NCBI GenBank assembly: GCA_001001345.1
Contig: LCKI01000003.1
Coordinates: forward strand, 4,614-68,613
Direction of reading: 5' to 3'
Length of the DNA stretch: 64,000 nucleotides
Origin: Parcubacteria group bacterium GW2011_GWC1_45_14
GTDB taxonomy: Bacteria > Patescibacteriota > Minisyncoccia > Moranbacterales > GWC2-37-73
Shown: positions 10,372-36,816 of the stretch, one piece after another
Layout: each line of letters begins with the position of its first letter
How positions within the stretch are numbered: position 1 is the stretch's first letter
Position numbers and translations under genes: made by a program
Notes under the pieces: generated by a model
The model's input: the letters and a program-made list of their open reading frames with translations, nothing else
Told to the model about the DNA's origin: nothing
The model's database searches: none

Positions 10372-10956
10372 CTATCGCTTTTTAGATTCAAATCCTATTT
10401 TATTTTTTCGGGATTTCATATCTGGATCTTCCTTTTTTAAAAACTCCCTCAATGTGTCGAAAATTATTTTGAATCTTTTATCATATCTCCTTTCCATCTC
10501 TTCGATCCTGGTCCTCAGTTCCTTGTTGCTGATTATCATTTCCCGAAGCTTCACGAATGTCCTGATAATCTGGATATTCACTTCGATAGCCCTGCGGCTA
10601 TTCAAGACGCTTGATAACATCGCTACGCCTTGCTCCGTGAAAACATATGGCAAATATCGTCTGCCTCCATAACCTGAGGTGACAATTTGGAACCTCAAGT
10701 TTTCAAATTCCTTCTTATTGAGCTGAAACATGAAATCATCAGGGAAGCGAGCGATGTTTCGTTTAACCGCCTTGTTGAGATTTTTCGTTTCAACGTCATA
10801 AAGAACGGCTAAATCGCTGTCCAGCATCACTTTCTTGCCTCTTGTCAGAAAGATTTTACTCTCTATTGTTTCTTGCGGGACTGGGATTATGTCGGATTTT
10901 ATATTTTTCATTTTTGTTTTTTCAAGCAGGCTGTCTTCGGGTAGTCGGAGTATCAA
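10372..10956 (-). CDS. ORF6N-domain protein (phage antirepressor-like, KilA-N-related)
   Basis: 'KVMLDSDLAVLYDVETKNLNKAVKRNIARFPDDFMFQL...YLPYVFTEQGVAMLSSVL' matches the ORF6N consensus. Confidence 0.7.
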   Translation of the reverse strand: MILRLPEDSLLEKTKMKNIKSDIIPVPQETIESKIFLTRGKKVMLDSDLAVLYDVETKNLNKAVKRNIARFPDDFMFQLNKKEFENLRFQIVTSGYGGRRYLPYVFTEQGVAMLSSVLNSRRAIEVNIQIIRTFVKLREMIISNKELRTRIEEMERRYDKRFKIIFDTLREFLKKEDPDMKSRKNKIGFESKKR

Positions 10957-20640: not shown

Positions 20641-21612
20641 TTAGTCATTGATATTCTTTATCAGCAGATCAATCCATGCATCCGTATAAATATAATCCTT
20701 ATGCGGTTCATCATATTGGCAATATTCTACTTTACAACTTTTTGAATTTGGCCTAACATTGTATTTTTTCCACATCTTGGTGTGCCAACTCATTGTCTTT
20801 TTTTGCTTTGTTCTTTCTTTAATAATTTCCAACACACTTGTTGGCTTATGCTTTCCTTGGTTTGCAACTTGAATATTTTTTTCTTTTATCCCTACAATAA
20901 ATTTCTCATATTTTTTCATTTCCTCACTATTGCTTTGATCAAACTTAACATACTCAACAGCAACATCAGATGAATTACGATGATTACCTAGCTTAGGAAT
21001 AAAAAAAGCTTTGAAAGAAAATTTTTGAGAATCTGAAATGTCAGCAGAAAGAGAATTTCTAAAAGTTTTAATAAAATCAATAATTTTTTCATCTTGTTTT
21101 GATTTTGGCAAGGTTTTTCTTTGTTCTGTAAATTGCAATGGTATGAAGAGATTTTCTACAATGGAATGCTTATCTCCAAACTCTTGCACTAGAAGCTCCT
21201 CAAAATTCAATAGCAATGACTGACATTCACCAGAAATCATAGGGTCTATTATTGGCATAAACCTATGTTCAATTTTATTTCTTATCTCATAAAAAAAGGA
21301 AATATTTTTTAAAACTGGACTATTTTCATCCTTATAGAATTCTGTTGCGGAGTCTAATAATCCCCAAGCCTTATTTTCTCCATTAATTTTTTTAAATCTT
21401 TTTGGATTTTTTTCGTCTAGATAAAAATATTTAACCCTTTGTTTTTCAAAAATAGCATGGAACAATGATGTCCAAGCTATGCACATTAAAACCACAAATC
21501 CACCGGCACGAAATGAAGTCTTCGGCTTATTATAAATATCCACACCCAACAAAGCTGACTCCTTTGCTTTTTCTAATAAATTTGAAACTTTTCCGGGTAA
21601 TCCTCTAGACAT
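20641..21612 (-). CDS. DUF3644-like protein, last gene of the RM operon
   Basis: N-terminus 'ALLGVDIYNKPKTSFRAGGFVVLMCIAWTSLFHAIFEK' resembles DUF3644, assigned from memory. Confidence 0.4.
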   Translation of the reverse strand: MSRGLPGKVSNLLEKAKESALLGVDIYNKPKTSFRAGGFVVLMCIAWTSLFHAIFEKQRVKYFYLDEKNPKRFKKINGENKAWGLLDSATEFYKDENSPVLKNISFFYEIRNKIEHRFMPIIDPMISGECQSLLLNFEELLVQEFGDKHSIVENLFIPLQFTEQRKTLPKSKQDEKIIDFIKTFRNSLSADISDSQKFSFKAFFIPKLGNHRNSSDVAVEYVKFDQSNSEEMKKYEKFIVGIKEKNIQVANQGKHKPTSVLEIIKERTKQKKTMSWHTKMWKKYNVRPNSKSCKVEYCQYDEPHKDYIYTDAWIDLLIKNIND

Positions 21613-21627
21613 ATATCAATATCCTAT

Positions 21628-22392
21628 TTATATTCTTTTCATTTGACTAATAATAGCGTTTGCAAGGTCACGTTTATCAATCAAAAAGTTATCCCATTTA
21701 TTTGCTTCATTTCTCTTTCTGCCCGCAACAAATCCAAACATTGCCTTTCCATTGTTGGAAATTTTATTTGCAAGTCGCACAAAGTCAGGACCTGGAACAA
21801 ACCAAAGATAATCCCAGAGATCACCTTCCTCCGTGTCAAAATAACAAAAAATTGTGGCCGTTGAGTAGTGATCATTAACACCAGAAGCCTTTGCTGTTGC
21901 AGTGAAAATCTCATCGGGATTATTACCAAAACGACTTTTGATCTGGATATACATCGTTTTCAAACTTCCTTTCTCCTTAACAATCAAATCAATTCCCTCA
22001 TCATCAGAAATTGGTTTATAACACGACAAGGTTGTATCGCCATATAAAATAACAAGCTCTGCAATTCGAGCCTCTGCGATATCTCCTTTTTGTTTCGTGG
22101 AAACATCTTTTGAAATGTTGTGAGTTTTATCTTCTTTTTGCGACTTTGATTTTACAGTTTCCCTGAATTCAGGATTCAATCCAAATGTCGAAGGTGCGGT
22201 CTTAATAAAACGAGATTTTTCTTTCTTTGAATTTGTATCAACAACAAGCTGAGCATTCATAGTGGCTTTTGGTGTTTTTCCTGCTGTTTTTAACCAACCC
22301 CTATCAAGAGCAACTTGTGTAATGTCGTTACTATGCAATGGCTTTCCAATTTCTTTTAATATTTGAAAAGCGATTTCTTTAAAAGAATTCAT
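21628..22392 (-). CDS. HARE-HTH domain fused to a PD-(D/E)xK restriction-endonuclease-like domain
   Basis: N-terminal 'EIAFQILKEIGKPLHSNDITQVALDRGWLKTAGKTPKATMNAQL' is a HARE-HTH. C-terminal 'DDEGIDLIVKEKGSLKTMYIQIKSR' is a D..(E)xK-type nuclease motif. Confidence 0.55.
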   Translation of the reverse strand: MNSFKEIAFQILKEIGKPLHSNDITQVALDRGWLKTAGKTPKATMNAQLVVDTNSKKEKSRFIKTAPSTFGLNPEFRETVKSKSQKEDKTHNISKDVSTKQKGDIAEARIAELVILYGDTTLSCYKPISDDEGIDLIVKEKGSLKTMYIQIKSRFGNNPDEIFTATAKASGVNDHYSTATIFCYFDTEEGDLWDYLWFVPGPDFVRLANKISNNGKAMFGFVAGRKRNEANKWDNFLIDKRDLANAIISQMKRI

Positions 22393-22404: not shown

Positions 22405-25140
22405 TTAAAAAATATTTTTTCTAATGTTATACAAAGTTTTCAGCGAACCAATTATATTATCCCTATATTCTGAAATACCGAATGCATCAAAAACCACATC
22501 GTCAAATTCTTTCCTATCACTACTTCTTAACTCATCTAAAATTGGCAGAATTTCTCGATTTTTTAAGACAGCAAATTTTTTCTTTATATCGTCTTTTTGT
22601 TTGTCAGATAACAAATCAGAATTTAAAATTTGCAGACTATTTTTCATCCGAGTTGAACTCAAGTCAAGAGCCCCTAATCCTCTTCCAAATCCCAACGCTT
22701 CAATAAAGAAAATTCCTAAAACACTATTTAACAGTGCCTGCGATAAATCGATATCGATATCGATATTTTTAGCAGTAAATCTCGTCAAGCGCTGATTAAC
22801 GAAAGATCTTTTTTCAAGTTTGGCAACGAAAATTCTCTTATCAAAATTCATACTCGTGACTAAATCTGCCATTGTTGAATTATTCATTTCATACCAGAAA
22901 TATCCAGCCCTCTTTAAAGCATCCGGTAATAGCTTATCCCCACTAGTGTTAAATTCATGTTCGAATTTTCTGATCCAATTTAACGCTCCCGTGTGTCCAA
23001 GCTTTTGTAAATTTTCCAACGATTCAGAACAGCAAAATGATTCTGATTCAGCTTGCGTCACAAGCATATTTATATCTCTTGATGATTTTAAAACAGGCTG
23101 TAAATATTCCGCCTCAATGTTATGCCCAGACTCTGGATAAAACATCGCGTCCCATCCTCTTCTTTCTCCCCTGTTAATATCAAACAAATTACTAGCCAAA
23201 ATAAGTTTATTTTCTATATCTTTAAGCCATGAAACATCGCTAAATAATGCACTCCAATTTAACGTAAAGTCAGACAATTCTTTGGTTTTATATTTTCGAA
23301 TAATTACATGTTCACTTGAAAGGCCAGCCAACACATTTTCCAAAACTTCACCGACCTTTTGATTATCAGTTTCCTTCTGCAAATCAAAATCAATTGTTAT
23401 GAAATTAGTAACTTCATCCTCATTGATTTCATTTAATAAATTTCTTCTATTTAAAATTAGAATGGTAGTTACAACATCAGCATTATTAAACCACCTTCCC
23501 TTACCTGAAATTAATATGGACTCGATGTGATAAAACTTATTCAGAGCAACCTTGAAAGCTGAACCCCATTCTGTACCGAGCCAAGAATTAGAAGTGATAA
23601 TTCCCAGCCTGCCGCCTGTCTTTAATATTTTCCATAAATAAAAAGGTATATATGCATATAAATCACTTTTTGCTTTTAGACTTAAATTTTCACCTAAAAG
23701 ATTTTCAAAAATTTCCCTTGTATTTTCTTTTATATTTGGATTCAAAATCTCTAAATCTTCTTGCTGAATGAATGGCAAATTAGAAGCAATGTAATTAACG
23801 CCCTCATACTTTTTAACGACGGGCTTACCTGTGTAGGGGTCTTTGAATTCAATGTCTTGTCCAATGAAAACATTAGTGCAGTCTTCCTTGAAAATTTGAA
23901 TAATCTCTCCAATATTTACTGGCTCTGTTAATGCGATTGTCGCCATTTGAAGAGGAAAAGCAACCTTGTCACTAGAAAAAATAGTTTTTAATGAATCCTT
24001 AGAGCTTATCCCTGATTCTTTTTTAATATCGTACGCACATCTTGCGATGGTTCCAGTTCCACAGCATGGATCATGAAAGGTTAACTCCTTATTTAACATT
24101 ACTAGACCGGTTAACAACCGAGCCAAAAACATTGGTGTTGCATATTGACCGGCAATTTTTCTTTTTGAAGAATAGATAATATCTTGCAAAAGCTCCTGAA
24201 GGAGTTCTTGACCCACGGATGACAATTCAACATTATTTAATAAGACATTCAATTGGATAATCTCCGACCACGATTCATCTGTTAAATAGTTTTCACCGAG
24301 CTGTGGCTGAAAAATATTCCAAAAATTACATTCGGCAGATATTTCTTGAAAAATTATTTCAGCTTCTTCAACGGAAGTTTCATCCTTAATCAATTCTATT
24401 TTTTTGGCTGGATCAAAGAATGCAATAAGAATATGTGCAAATAGAATCTTGTTAATCCAATTTATCAATATTATTTTAGATAGGATTTCCCATTGATTTT
24501 GTTGCGGATAGTCAAGCTTCGCAACTCGCCACCAAATGTTCGCTTCAGCTGAAAATCGCGCATCTTTCGTGGCCGCTTTTTTTAAATTCTCCGCAACGCC
24601 TGTATCATTTCTTAAAATAAAGTCTACTATCTCACTATCCTTAAAGGACTCTATGAATGTTTTTTTCTCGATAAAACCACTTTCAAAAAAAGCATTAAGA
24701 TCCTTTAATATTTCTTGAAGTAACTTTTTCCATTCATCCTTAAATTCATCAACCTTATCTCTTGTTGTAATTGATTTCTTTAAACTATCCCAAAGTTTAG
24801 CTGGTTCAAATTCGTTGTCCTTTTTTACATACAAAACAGCAACTCCCACATTCCAAAGCAAGAAACTATTCAAGCCCAATATATTTGCCTTTAAAATTGC
24901 GTTCTTAATAAACTCTTCATCTGTAACCAACGTGTCAGGCATCTTTAACTCCCAACCCATTAAAATTTCACTATTACGTCCATACAAAAGAACATCAGGA
25001 AATAGTCTCTTTTTTCCAGTATTTATTGTTGTTTCTCCACCAGCCCTGTCAATTGTCTTATTTTTTGCTGAAGAATATGCATTAATCTCCGAAATGAGAT
25101 CAATTGCCCAACTTCTTTCATTGTAAGAAGTTTTTGCCAT
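22405..25140 (-). CDS. Type IIG (MmeI-like) restriction-modification enzyme: PD-ExK endonuclease, gamma-class N6-adenine MTase and TRD
   Basis: 911 aa (MmeI is 919 aa). N-terminal 'FPDVLLYGRNSEILMGWELK' is a D-ExK motif. MTase motif I is 'HDPCCGTGTI' and motif IV is 'SNLPF'. A long C-terminal target-recognition region follows. Confidence 0.75.
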   Translation of the reverse strand: MAKTSYNERSWAIDLISEINAYSSAKNKTIDRAGGETTINTGKKRLFPDVLLYGRNSEILMGWELKMPDTLVTDEEFIKNAILKANILGLNSFLLWNVGVAVLYVKKDNEFEPAKLWDSLKKSITTRDKVDEFKDEWKKLLQEILKDLNAFFESGFIEKKTFIESFKDSEIVDFILRNDTGVAENLKKAATKDARFSAEANIWWRVAKLDYPQQNQWEILSKIILINWINKILFAHILIAFFDPAKKIELIKDETSVEEAEIIFQEISAECNFWNIFQPQLGENYLTDESWSEIIQLNVLLNNVELSSVGQELLQELLQDIIYSSKRKIAGQYATPMFLARLLTGLVMLNKELTFHDPCCGTGTIARCAYDIKKESGISSKDSLKTIFSSDKVAFPLQMATIALTEPVNIGEIIQIFKEDCTNVFIGQDIEFKDPYTGKPVVKKYEGVNYIASNLPFIQQEDLEILNPNIKENTREIFENLLGENLSLKAKSDLYAYIPFYLWKILKTGGRLGIITSNSWLGTEWGSAFKVALNKFYHIESILISGKGRWFNNADVVTTILILNRRNLLNEINEDEVTNFITIDFDLQKETDNQKVGEVLENVLAGLSSEHVIIRKYKTKELSDFTLNWSALFSDVSWLKDIENKLILASNLFDINRGERRGWDAMFYPESGHNIEAEYLQPVLKSSRDINMLVTQAESESFCCSESLENLQKLGHTGALNWIRKFEHEFNTSGDKLLPDALKRAGYFWYEMNNSTMADLVTSMNFDKRIFVAKLEKRSFVNQRLTRFTAKNIDIDIDLSQALLNSVLGIFFIEALGFGRGLGALDLSSTRMKNSLQILNSDLLSDKQKDDIKKKFAVLKNREILPILDELRSSDRKEFDDVVFDAFGISEYRDNIIGSLKTLYNIRKNIF

Positions 25141-25146
25141 ACTGAT

Positions 25147-26754
25147 TTACTTTAAACTTAATTTCTCTTTTGCTAATTCAACCCTGTCATTGCATATTTT
25201 TACATAGTCAATCTTTTTATCTTTAAATAAGTGCACGTCGGTATTTTTTTCAATTCCAACAAAATCCCTGCCTTCAACAACAGCGGAAACCAAAAAACTT
25301 CCGCTTCCGCATGTATTGTCCAGAATAATTTCGCCAGGATTGCTAAATGTTCTTATTAGATACTGACCAAGTTCTACTGGTTTTTGAGTAGGATGATATA
25401 CTTTTCCTTCGCTTTCTGCGGTTTTGAAATAAACAACATCAATTGGGTATCTCTCTCCATCGCTCTTGACCTCAACAGGTTTAAAATCACCATAACTTCC
25501 AGTAAGTTGATTTTTCCTAACACCCTTATTATATGCCTCTCCTTTTCTCATTTGTGGATTATAAGTTGGCTGTGTTTTATAAAAAACACAGATATCCTCA
25601 TGCTTTCTTAATGGCTGTTTTTTTGCATTCAAAAAATTTGTTGGTTTTGATTTTTCCCAAATTATTTTATATTTAAATAATTTCTCATTACTTAAAATTA
25701 GTTTTGCTGTAAATAATCCTTGAGCTGTTAATACTATTGCGCCGTTGTCTTTTATTATCCTCTCGTATTGCTCCCATAATTTATCCAAAGGAATAACACT
25801 ATCCCATTTATTTTGCGTAGTTCCATAAGGAAGATCACACAAAATCATATCGATAGATTTGTCTGGGATTTTTTTCATCACATCCAAACAATCTCCCGAA
25901 TGAACTTTATTTACAAAATCTTTTATTTCTTTCCTCAAAACTGGTTTTTTTATATTACTCATCGGAAAGTTATTTGCCTCAAAAGCCTGCTCCTCGAGAC
26001 TTGTCTCATAGGCCGTCTTTTCAGTTTCAAGTAATTCAAACAGAGCTGCCTGCGCTCCCTCAGCAACATAATCAAGGCTTTTATTTTTACCCTTTAGATC
26101 TTCAGAAAAACTATAACTTCCCTCACTAGAAGTAATTATAAAATCAATCACATTTATACCGAGAAGTGATCCTGCCTCTGCAATTTTTTTTATGACTTCA
26201 ATATCTTTCTCACTTGGCAAAGGATCCCCGGAAGGATGATTATGAACCAAAACTATACTTGCTGCCCTGAGTTCAAGTGCTGGTGCAAATATTTCTCTTG
26301 GATGAATAAGACTTTTGTCAAGCAAGCCTATGGTTATTGTTTCTTTTTTTATCAACACATTTCTAGCATTCAAATAGAGACACACGAGATATTCTTTCTT
26401 TTTATCTCTCAAACCATAAGTGAGGGAAAGGACACTATTTGAATTTTTAATAACAATTTCATTCCCCCTTCCTTCTTCATAATATCTTTTAACTAGCGCT
26501 ATCGCAGATGAAATTTGCAAGGCTTTTGCTTTTCCAATTCCCTTAATTTGGAGCAAATCGTCAACGGACGAGCTTAAAAATTTTACACCAAATTTTCTTA
26601 TAATTTGTTCCGACAATTCTTTCACATTCTTTCCCATGATTCCACTACCAAGAAGTATGGCAAGTAGTTCACTTTTCGTAAGTGCATCTGAGCCCTTTTT
26701 TAGAAATTTTTCCCTAGGACGATCAACTCTTGATATATCTTTTATTTTTGCCAT
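25147..26754 (-). CDS. RadC-like JAB/JAMM domain fused to a beta-class (N4/N6) DNA methyltransferase
   Basis: RadC 'VLVHNHPSGDPLPSEKDIEV' at residues about 170-190. MTase motif IV 'ILCDLPYGT' precedes motif I 'ILDNTCGSGSFLVSA', which is the beta-class order. Confidence 0.75.
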   Translation of the reverse strand: MAKIKDISRVDRPREKFLKKGSDALTKSELLAILLGSGIMGKNVKELSEQIIRKFGVKFLSSSVDDLLQIKGIGKAKALQISSAIALVKRYYEEGRGNEIVIKNSNSVLSLTYGLRDKKKEYLVCLYLNARNVLIKKETITIGLLDKSLIHPREIFAPALELRAASIVLVHNHPSGDPLPSEKDIEVIKKIAEAGSLLGINVIDFIITSSEGSYSFSEDLKGKNKSLDYVAEGAQAALFELLETEKTAYETSLEEQAFEANNFPMSNIKKPVLRKEIKDFVNKVHSGDCLDVMKKIPDKSIDMILCDLPYGTTQNKWDSVIPLDKLWEQYERIIKDNGAIVLTAQGLFTAKLILSNEKLFKYKIIWEKSKPTNFLNAKKQPLRKHEDICVFYKTQPTYNPQMRKGEAYNKGVRKNQLTGSYGDFKPVEVKSDGERYPIDVVYFKTAESEGKVYHPTQKPVELGQYLIRTFSNPGEIILDNTCGSGSFLVSAVVEGRDFVGIEKNTDVHLFKDKKIDYVKICNDRVELAKEKLSLK

Positions 26755-26839
26755 TTTGTTTCAAAAATAAGCGCCTTGTTACGTATACTGGGGGATGTGA
26801 GGCAGGTGGCGGTTTACCGCTTATATGACCATTCTACTC

Positions 26840-27040
26840 CCCTTTCCCCCCATGGTCCAGCTTTTTAGGGGGTGCGAAATTCCCAATCAAAGCAGGGGTT
26901 CACATTATCAATTATAAATTATCAGTTATAAAATCCCCTTATTTAAGCCGAAATACTGTTATCAGTTACAGGTTATCGGTTATCAAAAATGCCCTGATTT
27001 AAGCAAAAATCAACGGCTCAGGTGGGGTGGGCCGTTGAAA
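26840..27040. repeat. Interspersed intergenic repeat, copy A: C-rich/agcttttt box, GTTATC modules and a caacggctcagg..ccgttga hairpin
   Basis: Related copies at 28412..28630, 35705..35825, 37575..37720, 40871..40900 (partial) and 39262..39288 (hairpin only). The hairpin alone also occurs at 17070..17098. Confidence 0.75.
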
Positions 27041-27084
27041 AAAAGGGCTTAGGAAGGCTTCAAAACCTCCTGGGCGTCGTTTTT

Positions 27085-28410
27085 TCAGGCTTCGCACCTT
27101 TCCAAAAATTCCTTCTGGGCGGAGCGTTTTTTCAAGATGCCCATCTTGGCGACTTCGGCGGAGCTTTTTTGGGAAAGTTTTTGCAAAGCCTTGTCGAACT
27201 CGTGCACCTGCGGATTCACTTCCAAGGCGATATAGTTGATGCCCAAAAGCTTGATTCCCCCGAGGGTCCTGACGCGGGAAAGGGCGACATAGCCCATGCC
27301 GAACTCGAACGATTTGCTAAGGTCCATCTCCACCGCGTCCAGCGTCATGCCTTGGCTTTTGTGGACCGTGATCGCCCAAGCGAGGCGGAGCGGAACCTGG
27401 CTTATGGAAACCAAGGTTTTCTCGTTTTCCTCTATCGACCATTTCTCGGGAGTCGCGACGATCGTTTTTCCTGAAACCGTTTCGACGATCGGCATCCCGC
27501 TTCCGTTGAATCCCGCGACTTTGCCCAGTGTGCCGTTGACATAGCCCTGCTCGAAATTGTTCTTCACGAACATCACCACCGCGCCTTTTTTGAGAAAAAG
27601 GATTTCCGGAGCCAGACAACCTTTCTTGACGGAGCTGACCAAAAACTCGTTGCCGTTCGAGGTCATTTCGAAAACCCGCGCTTCCTCTTTGATCTTTTGC
27701 AATTCCGTTTTATTGATGGCGTCCACGTTGACGTTGTGGGTATAGAGCCTAGTCGGCGTGATTTTGCTGGCTATGGATTTGTTTTCCCGCGAAAGGATCG
27801 TAGCCATGGTTTTCGCGTCGCACGACCGGCTCCGGATGTCGGAAAGTATTTTGAGCATTTCCTTGTCTTCCTGGCGGTGCTGTTCTTCCAGATAGCAGAT
27901 TTTCGGATCCATTTCCTTCCAGGAGTCGGATTCGATTACGAACTGCGCCTGCTGGCCGTATTTCGCGACCGGAGGAAGCTGGAAAAAGTCCCCGCAAAGG
28001 ACCACTTGCAATCCGCCGAACGGCTTGAAGGGGTTTTTGAATTTCTTGCAGATGGCGTTGACGATGTCCAACTGGTAGGCGTGAAGCATAGAGATTTCGT
28101 CTATGATCAGCACGCTGGCGGCCGCGAAGCGGTTTTTGTGGTAATGCCTTTTTTTGAGTTTGGCGTATTCGGCCTCGTCGAAAACTTCGCTGATGCCCAT
28201 GCCTGACCAGCTGTGGATCGTCTGCCCGTTCATGTGGGTCGCGGCGATCCCGGTGGAAGCGGTGACCGCGACTCCGATGTTATTCTTTTTGAGATATTCG
28301 ATATATTGCTTGAGCACGTGGGTCTTTCCGCTCCCGGCCGGACCGGTCAAAAAAACGCTGTGCCCAAGTTTGAGGATATCCAACGCGGTTTTTTGTTTCA
28401 TACTAGCCAT
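27085..28410 (-). CDS. Pif1/RecD-family (AAA_30) DNA helicase
   Basis: Walker A 'GPAGSGKT', 'LIIDEISM', 'GDFFQLPPV', 'HKSQGMTLD' and 'YVALSRV'. Confidence 0.8.
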   Translation of the reverse strand: MASMKQKTALDILKLGHSVFLTGPAGSGKTHVLKQYIEYLKKNNIGVAVTASTGIAATHMNGQTIHSWSGMGISEVFDEAEYAKLKKRHYHKNRFAAASVLIIDEISMLHAYQLDIVNAICKKFKNPFKPFGGLQVVLCGDFFQLPPVAKYGQQAQFVIESDSWKEMDPKICYLEEQHRQEDKEMLKILSDIRSRSCDAKTMATILSRENKSIASKITPTRLYTHNVNVDAINKTELQKIKEEARVFEMTSNGNEFLVSSVKKGCLAPEILFLKKGAVVMFVKNNFEQGYVNGTLGKVAGFNGSGMPIVETVSGKTIVATPEKWSIEENEKTLVSISQVPLRLAWAITVHKSQGMTLDAVEMDLSKSFEFGMGYVALSRVRTLGGIKLLGINYIALEVNPQVHEFDKALQKLSQKSSAEVAKMGILKKRSAQKEFLERCEA

Positions 28411-28411
28411 G

Positions 28412-28630
28412 CTACCCCCTTTTAAACAGCTAGTCTAGCTTTTTAGGCTTTAGCTTTTTAGGGGGGTACGAAATCCCCAATCTAGGAAGGGATGCTGTTA
28501 TCTGTTATGAGTTATCGGTTATCAAAATGCCCTGATTTAAGACGGAATGCCGTTATCGGTTACAGGTTATCTGTTATCGAAATGCCTTAATTTAAGCCGA
28601 AAACAACGGCTTAGGTGGCCGAAGCCTTTT
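28412..28630. repeat. Interspersed intergenic repeat, copy B, with a tandemly duplicated GTTATC module
   Basis: Shares ccccttttaaacagctagtctagctttttag..gggggtacgaaatcccc, gttatcggttatcaaaatgccctgatttaag twice, and a variant hairpin with copy A. Confidence 0.75.
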
Positions 28631-28701
28631 AATCCTCCATTTTAAGCCAAAAAGAAAACCGGAATTAATCCCGGTTTTTCTGCTTGAAATCAATAAAAGG
28701 C

Positions 28702-28893
28702 TTATTTGCAAGAATTTGTCTGCAAGCTACCGAATTTGCGATCATATTCCTTTACGAGCTTGAGCTGATCCTTGTTGGCTCGCTTAGTAGCCTCCACGAC
28801 AAGCTTCTTTTGCTCCCTCGAAGATAAATCAAAAAAACTAAGCTCCTTGCCTGCCTTATTGCGTGTAATTTTTTGAATTATTTTTTTCAACAT
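28702..28893 (-). CDS. Small hypothetical protein overlapping the 3' end of the zeta-like gene by 7 nt
   Basis: 63-aa ORF. Its position suggests a possible cognate partner of the zeta-like kinase. Confidence 0.3.
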   Translation of the reverse strand: MLKKIIQKITRNKAGKELSFFDLSSREQKKLVVEATKRANKDQLKLVKEYDRKFGSLQTNSCK

Positions 28894-29603
28894 AATATTT
28901 TGCTTAGTGATTTCTTATTATATGGCATATCCAAGTAATTGTCAATATTGTCTATGTTAAATTTTATTTTTTCAGTCTCATTTGAATAATTTTTTATTAC
29001 CAGATTAATTTCAACATCTTTTCCAAATTCCTTTTTAATAGCGTTTACATTTTCCTTTGCCTTGAAAAATGCATCCACAAAAGCGTCTTTTGGAATATAT
29101 CTGCCCTCGAGCTCCTCTCGCTTTCTCGTAAACTCCCACGCCCTGAGCGGATCCTGATATAAATAAAATACGCTTATGACCCTGCCTTTCCTTAAGGATC
29201 TTTTGATATTTTCACGTGCGATCTCGTATTTTGCAAATGTTCCATCCATTAAGGCGTTTTGTCTATATTTTAAGACATGGTCGTATATCTTTTCGACTCC
29301 AAGCGAAGAAGCGCCTTGGATAATATCTGAATTTTTTCCATTATATTGCGGGATAATTTTTTTGATTTCATCCGCATCTATTCTTACAATTTCAGTAGCA
29401 TTTTTATATTTTGAAAATAGGATTATAAGTTCTTTTGAAAATTCGGTTTTACCCGCACCAGGAGAACCCGCCATGAAAATAGTAAACGGTTTCTCCACTG
29501 ATGGAAAATTATCAAGACTGCAAAATTTATCCAATAAAGTACGTTTTTCTTTTTGGATAAAAATTCTAGCTTCCTGTGATATTTTCAGCTCATCTCCATT
29601 CAT
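28887..29603 (-). CDS. Zeta-toxin-family P-loop kinase
   Basis: 'FTIFMAGSPGAGKTEFSKEL' is a Walker A. The 238-aa size fits zeta/PezT-like proteins. Confidence 0.65.
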   Translation of the reverse strand: MNGDELKISQEARIFIQKEKRTLLDKFCSLDNFPSVEKPFTIFMAGSPGAGKTEFSKELIILFSKYKNATEIVRIDADEIKKIIPQYNGKNSDIIQGASSLGVEKIYDHVLKYRQNALMDGTFAKYEIARENIKRSLRKGRVISVFYLYQDPLRAWEFTRKREELEGRYIPKDAFVDAFFKAKENVNAIKKEFGKDVEINLVIKNYSNETEKIKFNIDNIDNYLDMPYNKKSLSKILC

Positions 29604-29872
29604 TTATCAATTTTATCAATTTTATTATAGAAAAGCAAAAACATCCTCACAAAAAAGTCTGTTTTTAAGAAAATTACCTTCCTGTTTCTCAGTCACTCAC
29701 CTGACAAGAGTAAGAAATGATGCTAATCCGCGAATTCACCCTATTAAATCCCCGACGTGTCAGGGTGCTTGCCCTGTTGAATTTCAATGATTCAACAGGG
29801 TAAACAATTCAACAGGGTAAATGCCAATCCGCGAATTGCGAATATTATCAAAAGATTGAATATGGCTCAATT

Positions 29873-30337
29873 CTACTCCCCCTTCCCTTTAATCTCAATC
29901 CTATCCAATCCATGCTCATAAAGTTCGTCTCCGTACTTATCGATAAACTCATAACGTTTATAAAATCGCTCGTCCTTACCCATCTTCTTTATTTTATCCT
30001 CACCGTATTTCCGCAAAAAATCCCTCTCGCCCAAGCGATCGGCCAACTCTTCCCAGAAAACATCCTCGTCATATTCTTCTTTGAAATGATCGACAAGTTC
30101 TTCGAACTCAGCCGTCGGGAAATATTTCATATCTCCGACAGGTTCATCATCGACGTATTTTTCCAATCCCGCTTCCTGCGCATATGAAAAAATATAGCTT
30201 TCCAAAAAATTAAACTCCTTGAATTTGTCATCCGTCCGGATTGCATTCACCATCCAATTGCCCAAATATACCAATTTGAGCAAATTTCCATATTGCTTCT
30301 TGGTTAGCTGCACATTGATTTTATTGTTTTCAGTCAT
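29873..30337 (-). CDS. Hypothetical acidic protein
   Basis: 154-aa ORF with no recognised motif. Confidence 0.35.
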   Translation of the reverse strand: MTENNKINVQLTKKQYGNLLKLVYLGNWMVNAIRTDDKFKEFNFLESYIFSYAQEAGLEKYVDDEPVGDMKYFPTAEFEELVDHFKEEYDEDVFWEELADRLGERDFLRKYGEDKIKKMGKDERFYKRYEFIDKYGDELYEHGLDRIEIKGKGE

Positions 30338-30391
30338 ATTTTTTTGAAATCCATATCCCAGCCATATATGATTGTATGGAATTATATAAGA

Positions 30392-31282
30392 TTATTTTTC
30401 ATACTTGAATCCGGCTCCTATTTTCCAAACCCCTTTTTCCCTAAACGCCGGGATGTTTTGGCGGCGGGCGGCGTTGAAGATAGCCGGCGCCGATTTCTCG
30501 TGACCCTTGGCGTATTCCGAAAGGGTAATTATTTTTTCGCCTTTGAGATAGGCAATCCTTTTGTGCAGAGATTCCATAAGCGCTAACGCCAGGATTTTTT
30601 CCATCGTCTTGGTGTTCTTTTTGTCACGGTAATCTCCGAATGCCTTGTAGTATTCGGCTTTTTCCTTATCCCTAATTATGATCGGCACGAGCCCGAGTCT
30701 CATCAATTGGTAGCAGATGATCACGCGCCCGATGCGCCCGTTGCCGTCGCAAAACGGGTGGACGGTCTCGAAGTCAAGATGGAATTTCGCGATTTTTTCC
30801 AAAAAGTACGCATCCAGTTCTTTTGAATATTCCTGCAGAGTCGAGTCTATCATAAGCTCGACATGCTCGGGCGCAGGCGCTATATGCGTGCCGACCCTGA
30901 CGTATTCATATTGCTTGCGGAATCTTCCGGCGATGCCGTCATTTATGCCCCCGATCAACATCTGGTGCATCAGTAAAATAAGCTCTTTGTCGATTTCTTT
31001 TTCTTGCGACTTCGTTCGGATATATTCCATGACACGTGCAAGATTCTTCGCTTCAAATATTTCGCGGACATTCAAATCGCGCGAGACCTCCATCTCCAGC
31101 AGGATTTTCTCCGTTTCCTTGAGCGTAAGGGTTGAATTTTCAATGGCATTCGAGTTATAAACGCTTTCCGGCACCTCCGCCTCATCAATCATAACCAAAA
31201 GCGCCTCCTTGCCCTTTCTGAGGGAGTCGAATTCATTTTTAAGCTCTTGTATGCGCTTTTTAATCGGATTTGTTATGGCCAT
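30392..31282 (-). CDS. Fic-family protein, with an AMPylator-type motif
   Basis: Canonical 'HPFCDGNGRIGR'. Confidence 0.85.
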   Translation of the reverse strand: MAITNPIKKRIQELKNEFDSLRKGKEALLVMIDEAEVPESVYNSNAIENSTLTLKETEKILLEMEVSRDLNVREIFEAKNLARVMEYIRTKSQEKEIDKELILLMHQMLIGGINDGIAGRFRKQYEYVRVGTHIAPAPEHVELMIDSTLQEYSKELDAYFLEKIAKFHLDFETVHPFCDGNGRIGRVIICYQLMRLGLVPIIIRDKEKAEYYKAFGDYRDKKNTKTMEKILALALMESLHKRIAYLKGEKIITLSEYAKGHEKSAPAIFNAARRQNIPAFREKGVWKIGAGFKYEK

Positions 31283-35601: not shown

Positions 35602-35835
35602 GACAAAAAATCATCAGCCCCAAGAATCTATCTATATTCCGATTTTACCACGCCAGCAACACTTCGCATAGCATTACTAAGCGAGCCTGAGGGAATCAAG
35701 TAACCAGTTCGTCAAGAAACACCGAATTTAAGCCGAGATACACATTATCGATTATGAATTATCAGTTATCAAAAATGCCCTGATTTAAGCCGAAACCAAC
35801 GGCTCAGGCGGGCTGAGCCGTTGAAACTACCCTTT

Positions 35836-36816
35836 TCAACCCTTTGTCGACAACAGCGTCGTGACGAGCGCTGTCATTTGGTCTTTTTTCTTCGGATCGC
35901 TCTCGGCGATAAGCAAGGTCAGAACAGTCAGAGCGGCGGGGTTGATTATTCTCGCTCCCTTCGTGCGGGTTTTGCGCAAAAACCACACGAAAGCGAACGC
36001 TCCGGAACGCTTGTTGCCGTCGACGAACGGATGGTTTTTCACCATGAAATATAGGAGGTGCGCCGCTTTCTCTTCGACCGTGGCATAGACCGGCTTGCCG
36101 CCGAAAGACTGCATCACGTTTCCGACGATTCCTTCCACGCTTCCGCCTTTTCTCTCCTGCGCGAAAATATCCGTCGCCTCGCCTTTTCTCATCAATTCCC
36201 CACGAAGACTCGCGATCGCTTCTGAAAGTTCGGTCCCGGTCAGTTTCACCGCCCTCTTGGTCGTTCCGATGGGCCTCAGCTCTTCCTTGTCATAGGCGTC
36301 CAGCGAAACCCAAGTGCCGGCGAATTCCTTGATCAAGTCCAGCACCATTTTCGGATCCAAGGTCACGTGCTCCGGCAAAAGCGCTTGGATGTCCGCGACC
36401 GCCTTCATGAAAGAGTCATAATTCTTGCCGATCCGTTGGCGGTTGATGGTGTAGCCTTTCGTGATATGCTCGCGCAAAGTCCTTGTCGCCCATCTTCGAA
36501 ATTCCGTAGCTGTTTTCGAATTGACCCTATACCCGACTGAAATAATGGCATCTAAATTGTAATATTCTACCTGATAAACCTTGCCGTCAGCGGCAGTTGT
36601 TGCATTTTTTGCAACAACTGCTTTTCTCTGCAGCTCACCTTCTTTAAAAATATTCCTTAAATGGCGGGATATTACCGATTTATCGCGCCCAAAAACGTCA
36701 GCAATCTGATCCAAAGATGCCCAAATAGTCTCATGTTGAAAATCTCCCTTGAGCTCGATCGCCCCGTTTTCGGCTTGGTAAATCACCATATTATTTTGCA
36801 ACTTTTTCTTTTTCAT
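35836..36816 (-). CDS. RhuM-family N-terminal domain fused to a Doc-type Fic domain
   Basis: N-terminus 'ETIWASLDQIADVFGRDKSVISRHLRNIFKEGEL' is RhuM-like. C-terminus 'HPFVDGNKRSG' is a Doc/Fic motif. Confidence 0.75.
   Translation of the reverse strand: MKKKKLQNNMVIYQAENGAIELKGDFQHETIWASLDQIADVFGRDKSVISRHLRNIFKEGELQRKAVVAKNATTAADGKVYQVEYYNLDAIISVGYRVNSKTATEFRRWATRTLREHITKGYTINRQRIGKNYDSFMKAVADIQALLPEHVTLDPKMVLDLIKEFAGTWVSLDAYDKEELRPIGTTKRAVKLTGTELSEAIASLRGELMRKGEATDIFAQERKGGSVEGIVGNVMQSFGGKPVYATVEEKAAHLLYFMVKNHPFVDGNKRSGAFAFVWFLRKTRTKGARIINPAALTVLTLLIAESDPKKKDQMTALVTTLLSTKG

Follow-up and report, generated by a model that had tools for sequence, protein, structure and literature searches.

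A RadC–DNA Methyltransferase Fusion Heading a Mobile Type IIG Restriction–Modification Cassette and Sharing a Portable RadC Head with Other Methyltransferase Families

Introduction

Restriction–modification (R-M) systems must keep methylation ahead of cleavage, and this demand is acute in type IIG and type IIS systems, where the two strands are modified separately and fresh replication products are exposed to cleavage. It has been reported that type IIG enzymes methylate one strand and that a separate second methyltransferase classically protects newly replicated DNA; for instance, Eco57I is not clonable without its companion methyltransferase (PMC2582602). The subject of this work is a two-gene cassette in a stretch of 64,000 nucleotides (nt), hereafter the window, from Parcubacteria group bacterium GW2011_GWC1_45_14 (contig LCKI01000003.1, positions 4,614 to 68,613), in which a 535-amino-acid (aa) protein that joins a RadC-like part to a beta-class DNA methyltransferase is encoded directly ahead of a type IIG R-M enzyme.

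RadC is near-universal in bacteria and is competence-induced in several species, and we know of no activity of this protein. R-M methyltransferases with N-terminal regulatory DNA-binding heads are represented by the M.SsoII/M.EcoRII type, and the eukaryotic pair DNMT1–PCNA is an example of a clamp-tethered methyltransferase. The RadC fusions described in the literature searched are those with helix-hairpin-helix (HhH), ArdC, DnaG and DinG domains, in addition to RadC/ArdB modules and polyvalent proteins (PMC3239186, PMC5512222, PMC12458937). On balance, we favour the reading that the fusion in the window is the companion methyltransferase of a mobile type IIG cassette and that its RadC head would couple methylation to newly replicated or newly entered DNA.

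Domains and Integrity of the Fusion Gene

The fusion is an ATG-start open reading frame on the minus strand (25147..26754) and the first gene of the cassette; the plus-strand frame of the same interval is riddled with stop codons, and the positions of all domains and motifs of both cassette genes refer to the minus strand. A UPF0758_N HhH domain (aa 4–78, 26521..26745; Pfam PF20582, E 2e-21), inside which GIGKAKA lies at aa 72–78, is followed by a RadC-type JAB domain (aa 104–218, 26101..26445; Pfam PF04002, E 1.1e-35). By motif reading, the JAMM glutamate is located in HPREIF (aa 151–156, 26287-26304), and the JAMM motif proper, HNHPSGDPLPSEKD (aa 171–184, 26203-26244), shows a perfect HxHx7SxxD pattern. 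The RadC part scores 208.4 bits against the NCBIfam equivalog NF000642, whose curated cut-off is 180, and in a sequence search of the PDB its JAB domain matches the RadC JAB structure 2qlc (E 8e-25). The C-terminal half is a beta-class N6/N4 DNA methyltransferase domain (aa 301–505, 25240..25854; Pfam PF01555, E 5.5e-24, 85.8 bits against a gathering cut-off of 26.7), in which motif IV DLPY (aa 307–310, 25825-25836; DLPYG when extended to aa 311) precedes motif I DNTCGSGS (aa 479–486, 25297-25320; DNTCGSGSF when extended to aa 487), the circular permutation of the beta class. This half matches M.RsrI (3e-16), M.MboIIA (1e-12) and CcrM (1e-11) in the PDB sequence search and the PADLOC model MTase_II (232 bits). 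The domain and PDB matches of the fusion are far above chance level. The leading aspartate of motif IV suggests N6-adenine as a putative target base. DLPY and the methyltransferase motifs are invariant in an alignment of 23 homologues. The original prediction for this locus, drawn from the sequence alone, had described a complete RadC-like N-terminus with an HhH domain and the JAMM motif HNHPSG, joined to a methyltransferase with motif IV ahead of motif I; Pfam, NCBIfam and the motif positions agree with the former, and DLPY at aa 307–310 and DNTCGSGS at aa 479–486 bear out the latter.

The fusion is one genuine, intact gene. The identical 535-aa protein is found in four independent NCBI assemblies (EKD28230.1, HAV11752.1, KKT89837.1 and KKT95192.1), and fifteen more clusters with 70–76% identity have an identical three-domain architecture of 530–543 aa, with the JAMM residues and both methyltransferase motifs kept in the alignment. 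A frameshift-merged pair of separate genes had been raised as the explanation that would undo the prediction, with a stop codon expected in other strains; none of the homologues of the fusion has a stop codon at the RadC/methyltransferase junction, and a frameshift or assembly merger of two genes is largely refuted by the conserved frame in at least 16 clusters and the four NCBI assemblies.

The Type IIG Partner and the Two-Gene Cassette

The second gene of the cassette encodes a type IIG R-M enzyme of 911 aa (22405..25140), whose start lies 6 nt past the stop of the fusion. It matches the PADLOC model REase_MTase_IIG with 1052 bits over aa 3–910 of 911, together with the Pfam families N6_Mtase and Eco57I, and it has no close relative of solved structure, its sole PDB match being the BseCI methylase (E 5e-6). 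A PD...ELK nuclease motif (P48-D49...E64-L65-K66; aa 48–66, 24943-24999), the gamma-class motif I DPCCGTG (24052-24072) and motif IV NLPF (23770-23781) can be recognized, and all three are invariant in seven type IIG partners, one of which is just 50% identical. As an observation on both cassette methylases, leucine replaces the first proline of the catalytic motif IV, giving DLPY (25825-25836) in the fusion and NLPF (23770-23781) in its partner, and both variants are invariant across homologues.

The loci with the fusion that were read comprise the window, L001-6, L007-8, L009 (a Roizmanbacteria genome), L010-11 and L074. A co-directional type IIG homologue of 908–916 aa follows the fusion in 8/8 independent loci, and in all loci read the type IIG gene overlaps the fusion or begins 0–6 nt downstream. 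The genes flanking the pair are wholly different from locus to locus. Similarly, the DNA homology shared by the window and L007 starts at −7, ends at +4264 nt and thereby covers precisely the two genes. The conserved mobile unit is, thus, the fusion plus the type IIG enzyme. A metagenome scan with the type IIG protein returned two loci, both with the expected pairing, which are too few for an association statistic. Because the type IIG neighbour is invariable and type IIG enzymes need a second methyltransferase, the fusion is best read as the probable companion modification methyltransferase of the adjacent 911-aa enzyme. The original prediction had suggested self-protection against the neighbouring nucleases; this suggestion holds for the type IIG R-M gene, which comes next in 8/8 loci, but not for the HARE-HTH/PD-(D/E)XK neighbour (21628-22392), which is not conserved with the cassette.

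A Portable RadC Head on Four Methyltransferase Families

Cross-class DNA homology delimits a portable RadC head of aa 1–252 (25999..26754), which consists of the HhH domain, the JAB domain and a conserved tail. When residues 1–230 were used as the query, the closest relatives (58–76% identity) were RadC proteins joined to other methyltransferase families and not ordinary RadC. A scan of one genome per species gave 52 loci with related RadC heads, with hosts among lineages of the candidate phyla radiation (CPR), Omnitrophota, Planctomycetia, Atribacterota, Cloacimonadota, Gammaproteobacteria, Arcobacter and others. RadC is joined to a D12 (Dam-like) methyltransferase in a protein of about 600 aa in 45 of these loci, to a C5 methyltransferase in one and to a methyltransferase of another type, in a protein of 655 aa, in two. 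The head is, thus, found at 58–97% identity on D12, C5, N6_N4 and a fourth type of methyltransferase, and the fusion in the window, which had been presented as a one-off, turns out to be one case of a portable head common to four methyltransferase families. Such fusions are nevertheless rare among RadC proteins, as had been predicted: an exhaustive phmmer search over 1.84 billion representatives gave 40,225 RadC relatives, and an extension was present in about a dozen clusters only, which corresponds to about a dozen fused or tailed forms among some 40,000 RadC cluster representatives. All long representatives with an N-terminal RadC in this search are fusions to a DNA methyltransferase. Of 64 fusions, 63 have an intact JAMM pattern. 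The original prediction had linked a putative deubiquitinase/peptidase-like activity to DNA methylation, and the JAMM site that such an activity would use is intact in the window.

The gene order around the head is equally regular. The RadC head is always located on the first methyltransferase gene of a co-directional R-M operon. Behind RadC-D12, a second D12 methyltransferase is found in 23 loci, an additional N6_N4 methyltransferase in 15 and a nuclease cluster, which belongs to the AlwI family by its scanned representative, in 36; RadC-C5 and the 655-aa RadC fusions are followed by NgoFVII-like nucleases. The nucleases behind headed operons, therefore, belong to three families, namely AlwI-like, NgoFVII-like and type IIG.

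Several side observations concern the RadC-D12 form. It occurs on two contigs binned as archaea, L023 (an Altiarchaeales metagenome-assembled genome (MAG), 8.5 kb) and L046 (a Thermoplasmatota MAG, 4.2 kb), and the head of L023 is 96% identical to that of L071 from a Paceibacter genome; these cassettes represent either very recent cross-domain transfer or mis-binned short contigs. Some RadC-D12 fusions are cut short just past motif I (FAGTGV...), namely L019/L047:5930-6904 as well as P0130, P0151 and P0185, and two of the shortened proteins end in an identical new C-terminus, RFNFNQ. Behind the shortened gene of L019 come genes for Bro-N, a PLD nuclease and an N6_N4 methyltransferase, an arrangement that resembles the insertion of another element at a recurring site. 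In addition, a GIY-YIG/DUF4357 protein with a match to PDC-S14, a candidate defence family, directly adjoins RadC-D12 in about five loci (L033:2088-2936, L038, L044:5150-5998 and L029:10296-11159 among them).

The original prediction had also considered an anti-restriction role, and a related explanation is that the head acts as an establishment or anti-defence effector, which would be made first on host entry and would inactivate some host factor or act on the DNA coming in. Antirestriction contexts and polyvalent proteins with RadC-type JAB domains have been described (PMC3239186, PMC5512222, PMC12458937), the operon's first gene is always the one with the head, and the cassette is horizontally mobile across phyla. 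The anti-restriction role found no support, as no phage, plasmid or conjugative context was found for the clade. Ordinary RadC proteins are 31–47% identical to the head, and those in annotated phages and plasmids 31–41%, with the match ending near residue 219. The annotated phage and plasmid collections contained ordinary RadC only (<42% identity) and none of the head clade, and none of the clade was detected in IMG/VR viral contigs with the head as a single sequence or as a profile, at the sensitivity used. The loci read contain no conserved conjugation or phage genes near the cassette, whose neighbours are chromosomal housekeeping genes. Against a free-acting effector also stand the full-length HhH-RadC form of the clade, which is not the short mobile-element form, and the covalent fusion kept under selection in 64/64 cases, which such an effector leaves unexplained. 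We consider this explanation decidedly unlikely.

Exchange of Heads and Cargo

The head is a discrete, mobile, recombining module under purifying selection. In the window, the cassette has 34% GC against 44% in the flank, and elsewhere the GC content of the head equals that of its cargo and differs from that of the host (35% against 58–60% in L043 and 30% against 41% in L071). The methyltransferase classes are intermixed on the head tree: the nearest neighbour belongs to another class for 14/63 heads, the beta-type fusions arise in at least five places, and the heads of P0002 (beta) and L071 (D12) share 97% aa identity. Cross-class DNA homology spans −1 to about +755 nt with 87–88% identity and then ends abruptly, at a point that coincides with the end of the conserved tail. 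The ratio dN/dS is 0.02–0.16 for the HhH part and 0.03–0.20 for the JAB part.

A trace of such exchange can be followed in one documented case. L007/L008, with beta and type IIG cargo, and L071/L039, with D12 and AlwI-like cargo, share a 3' segment with 87% nt identity. In L071:9640-10416 and L039:9614-10420, this segment is an intact N6_N4 methyltransferase of 258–268 aa; in L007 it is a 5'-truncated, frameshifted relic (L007:12616-13316, with its counterpart at L008:5008-5613). The relic in L007 directly documents an in-situ replacement of one cargo by another between conserved arms.

Upstream DNA is not co-inherited with the head in most related cassette pairs, in which homology begins at −1 to −17. 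These data bear on the explanation that the fusion is an artefact or without meaning, either a frameshift or assembly merger or a housekeeping radC with an R-M insertion hotspot at its 3' end. Most of the sequences come from metagenome assemblies, and several relatives are truncated or frameshifted, which would suit such an origin. Opposed to it are the frame of 530–543 aa in 16 clusters and the four NCBI assemblies of the identical protein, the agreement in GC between head and cargo, the between-host homology that begins at the start codon, the strong purifying selection, and the fact that ordinary RadC is just 31–41% identical and lacks the tail. A housekeeping radC serving as the insertion hotspot is excluded by the cargo-like GC of the head together with the homology beginning at the start codon. 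An artefact is, therefore, extremely improbable.

The Conserved Tail, a Possible Sliding-Clamp Motif

The linker between the JAB domain and the methyltransferase is about 60 aa long and variable in sequence save for one near-invariant element, Y-[VI]-[AS]-[DE]-G-x-Q-x-x-L-F-[DNE]-[LFY]-[LF]-E. In the window, the conserved tail identified from the alignment of fusions is DYVAEGAQAALFELLETEKTAYE (aa 228–250, 26005..26073), and its QxxLF instance is QAALF (aa 235–239, 26038-26052). In the 63 fusions, which span four classes, the motif retains Q in 63/63, L in 61/63, F in 61/63 and S/T at position 3 in 50/63, and the flanks vary. QL[SDTN]LF fits 13/63 fusions, with instances including QLSLF, QLNLF and QLTLF. 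Fusions whose RadC is just 46–48% identical keep QKSLF in a different sequence context. The tail as a general RadC feature is excluded, as it is absent in 126/127 ordinary RadC representatives.

It has been reported that the bacterial clamp-binding motif is QL[S/D]LF, more generally QxxLF, with positions 1, 4 and 5 being critical (PMC12309361), and that the clamp motif serves transposases of nine insertion sequence (IS) families in distantly related hosts and cross-binds archaeal PCNA (PMC4549789). The invariant positions 1, 4 and 5 of the tail coincide with these critical positions, and binding of the tail to the beta sliding clamp is a tentative lead suggested by the motif.

Apparently stand-alone tailed RadC proteins of about 260–275 aa were also noted in P0174, P0194, P0199, P0204, P0232, P0236 and P0238. 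They have no methyltransferase, their tail variant is DYI[AC][ED]G.Q..L[SD][DE][LF][IL], and they could be either forerunners or degraded versions of the head.

Other Heads on the Same Methyltransferase Core

The C-terminal half of the fusion is 75–80% identical to hundreds of proteins, which are either stand-alone or carry other N-terminal parts. The alternative heads on this beta core are a full-length LexA, a helix-turn-helix (HTH) domain of the HTH_17/MerR type, a winged HTH (wHTH) of the Rrf2/LexA type, and HhH alone. The LexA-headed, HTH-headed and unheaded forms that were checked lie beside convergent genes of 305–447 aa without a Pfam match, which is the classic type II arrangement. 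An HhH-only sister lineage (P0018, P0019 and P0022-P0024; L014/L015, Kiritimatiellales) has cleanly lost JAB, while the HhH domain, part of the tail (Q-E-Y-L) and a co-directional type IIG gene of 908 aa persist.

The LexA–beta methyltransferase fusions are worth describing in their own right. They are about 485 aa long and form dozens of clusters, such as P0066 (L012/L013), P0035, P0038, P0081, P0103 and others. Their LexA head is intact, with the autocleavage site SAGQP, the serine in GQSM and the lysine in VTLKK, and the fusion gene adjoins a convergent gene of about 305–322 aa without a Pfam match. Judging from these motifs, the LexA-headed form looks like an SOS-responsive, self-regulating R-M methyltransferase.

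This variety of heads raises the explanation that the RadC head, like the LexA, HTH and Rrf2 heads, is a regulatory or sensor switch, which would combine DNA binding with signal-dependent self-processing, for example at the [DE]-G of the tail, and would tune the balance of methyltransferase to nuclease during establishment or after DNA damage. The same beta core (75–80% identity) does carry intact LexA, HTH_17/MerR or Rrf2/LexA-type wHTH heads; in both the LexA and the RadC head, a peptidase fold comes after a DNA-binding domain; and conservation extends to the JAMM site and to a near-invariant glycine ahead of the QxxLF motif. However, HhH binds DNA without sequence specificity, and the start of homology at −1 to −17 in most related cassette pairs means that there is no conserved operator. 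Moreover, the partners of the LexA and HTH forms are small nuclease candidates in convergent orientation, whereas RadC heads belong to co-directional operons, and the tail motif is kept where JAB has been deleted, so it is not merely a JAB substrate. A switch of this kind is regarded as unlikely. The narrower proposal of a transcriptional autoregulator was likewise judged unlikely, since the upstream DNA is not co-inherited.

Proposed Mechanism

For the companion methyltransferase that we favour, the mechanism may be pictured as follows. The C-terminal half is an ordinary beta-class methyltransferase that would shield host DNA from the adjacent nuclease–methylase, with its methylation chemistry left unchanged by the head. 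The HhH domain would hold DNA without sequence preference, and docking on a universal host factor would fall to the QxxLF tail, with the beta sliding clamp as the best candidate for this factor. The methyltransferase would, in this way, be placed on nascent or incoming DNA, and protective methylation would keep pace with the nuclease in any host. Since the benefit of the head is independent of the methyltransferase and nuclease family and no operator travels with it, the head should work through something universal, that is, DNA or a host factor. While the integrity of the gene, its domain content, the pairing with the nuclease, mobility, modularity and purifying selection are shown by the data, the targeting function of the head, clamp docking and any activity of JAB are inferred.

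We give limited credence to a fuller scheme in which the clamp-bound tail would recruit R-M methyltransferases to the replisome and JAB would act on a fork-associated substrate; cleavage by JAB at the conserved [DE]-G directly before QxxLF might, for example, set the methyltransferase free. Another explanation gives JAB a nuclease role and makes the fusion a second nuclease–methylase, which would, for example, trim or nick unmethylated DNA. In its favour, RadC JAB takes nuclease-equivalent positions in DinG fusions, a contextual argument (PMC3239186), an HhH domain is present, and ParB–nuclease–methylase fusions offer a precedent (PMC5512222); we hold such a role to be very improbable. JAB as a protease against the partner nuclease was judged unlikely because three unrelated nuclease families are involved.

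Several points weigh against the targeting model and its clamp component. The main gap is that targeting leaves the JAB active site, despite its strong conservation, without a role. The conserved stretch covers about 23 residues, compared with the typical 5–6, and could be a structural element packing on JAB. The QAALF of the window departs from the optimal consensus in having alanine at positions 2 and 3, and a crude charge–hydropathy disorder index for the linker is borderline. In addition, L[SD][DE] replaces LF in some of the tailed RadC proteins that seem to stand alone.

Genomic Setting of the Cassette

The RpoB of the window is 95% identical to those of Candidatus Moranbacteria genomes, and the presence of rpoB, rpoC and an AcrB-type pump identifies the window as chromosomal. 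The cassette lies in a low-GC island at about 20.6–27.0 kb (about 33–34% GC against 44–47% in the flanks), which contains four tightly packed minus-strand genes and is best explained as a horizontally acquired defence island of a Candidatus Moranbacteria chromosome. In addition to the two cassette genes, it encodes a HARE-HTH plus PD-(D/E)XK nuclease of 254 aa (21628-22392, minus strand), identified by Pfam and without a PADLOC match, and a DUF3644/PDC-S19 candidate defence protein (20641-21612, minus strand; Pfam, and PADLOC PDC-S19 with 407 bits). Both genes are absent beside the cassette in the other loci read. A search for flanking direct repeats or att-like sites at the island boundaries gave nothing convincing.

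The upstream island edge, placed by sequence and GC shift, is the intergenic region 5' of the fusion (26755..27084), where a PIF1-like gene is followed by a terminator-like hairpin and T-run. Between this hairpin and the start of the fusion, four TGATAAY repeats lie within 82 bp (26904-26985, minus strand). TGATAAY has 29 copies in the window against 16 ± 4 expected, with small clusters also at 10532-10618 and 35758-35771, and the repeats may be host promoter or regulator sites; neither they nor the 26755..27084 region is conserved in other cassettes. A promoter/terminator scan gave 35 against 24.6 ± 6 in shuffled sequence, which is not clearly above expectation. Further upstream of the island (27085-31282 and 35836-36816, minus strand), there are many conflict-type genes. 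These include genes for a PIF1/RecD-like helicase, whose GC content of 52% is unusually high, and for a zeta toxin (28887-29603), which a small open reading frame (28702-28893, minus strand) overlaps. Two Fic proteins are also encoded (30392-31282 and 35836-36816, minus strand), and the second of them has a RhuM domain.

Significance and Comparison with Known Systems

That selection keeps the head on methyltransferases of four families and across many phyla points to a general, so far undescribed coupling of protective methylation to host DNA transactions. The fusions also give a selectable, heterologously testable phenotype for the HhH and JAB domains of RadC, together with a candidate partner, the sliding clamp, and the exchange of heads and cargo illustrates the reshuffling of R-M specificities in CPR bacteria and other uncultivated lineages. 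If the tail does bind the clamp, it would be a prokaryotic counterpart of DNMT1–PCNA maintenance methylation on a mobile plug-in module. If the reading as a whole is true, the RadC family, whose role has been in question since ‘RadC, a misleading name?’ (2008), would for the first time be given a concrete functional setting, and ‘polymorphic’ R-M loci would be defined by recombination between a conserved head and exchangeable methylase–nuclease cargo.

The full-text literature searched, which left out most subscription journals and REBASE, contains no description of a RadC–methyltransferase heading R-M operons, and the searchable literature contains no report of a clamp-binding motif on a prokaryotic R-M methyltransferase. 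Public databases give the fusions no label more specific than ‘DNA methylase’, ‘DNA repair protein RadC’ or ‘MPN domain-containing protein’. The concern that the architecture might be widespread and already characterized did not materialize, as it is recurrent yet uncharacterized in the searchable literature.

Among known systems, the head resembles housekeeping RadC/YicR (UPF0758) in having HhH then JAB, the pattern E...HxH...S..D and a score above the equivalog cut-off. Housekeeping RadC is a stand-alone protein of 220–235 aa that ends about 15–20 residues past the last JAB strand; unlike it, the head clade has the QxxLF tail, a methyltransferase fusion, foreign composition and movement between phyla, and it is filed here as a derived, mobile RadC clade, not a housekeeping gene. 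The cassette resembles Eco57I-type IIG systems in its single-chain nuclease, gamma-class methylase and recognition function, with a separate methyltransferase in addition, and differs from them in that the companion methyltransferase bears a 252-aa RadC head. An accessory N-terminal domain on an R-M methyltransferase is shared with the M.SsoII/M.EcoRII type. However, repressor-type heads have sequence-specific folds and convergent nuclease genes, whereas the RadC head has HhH plus a hydrolase fold, no co-inherited operator and co-directional operons.

Clamp-tethered IS transposases and replication and repair proteins offer a further parallel, since they have a short QxxLF in a linker and, in the case of the mobile elements, work in many hosts; for the RadC heads, such binding is predicted from the motif, and unlike the canonical clamp motif, the conserved stretch is longer. 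The JAB domains of mobile elements (ArdC-RadC, DinG-RadC, DnaG-RadC, RadC/ArdB ‘moron’ modules and polyvalent proteins) are similarly fused to DNA-transaction enzymes in conflict systems, and ParB–methylase fusions are a precedent for a nucleic-acid-acting N-terminal domain on a beta-class methylase. None of the described RadC fusions is to an R-M methyltransferase, and they are conjugative or phage-borne, whereas here a full HhH-RadC belongs to a chromosomal R-M cassette. Polymorphic toxin loci share the conserved 5' head, the sharply bounded recombining 3' cargo and the relics of displaced cargo, but their cargo is a toxin with its immunity protein, unlike the methyltransferase and nuclease found here. 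The locus is, therefore, an R-M system of a known kind, and what is new is the accessory RadC module and the exchange of head and cargo.

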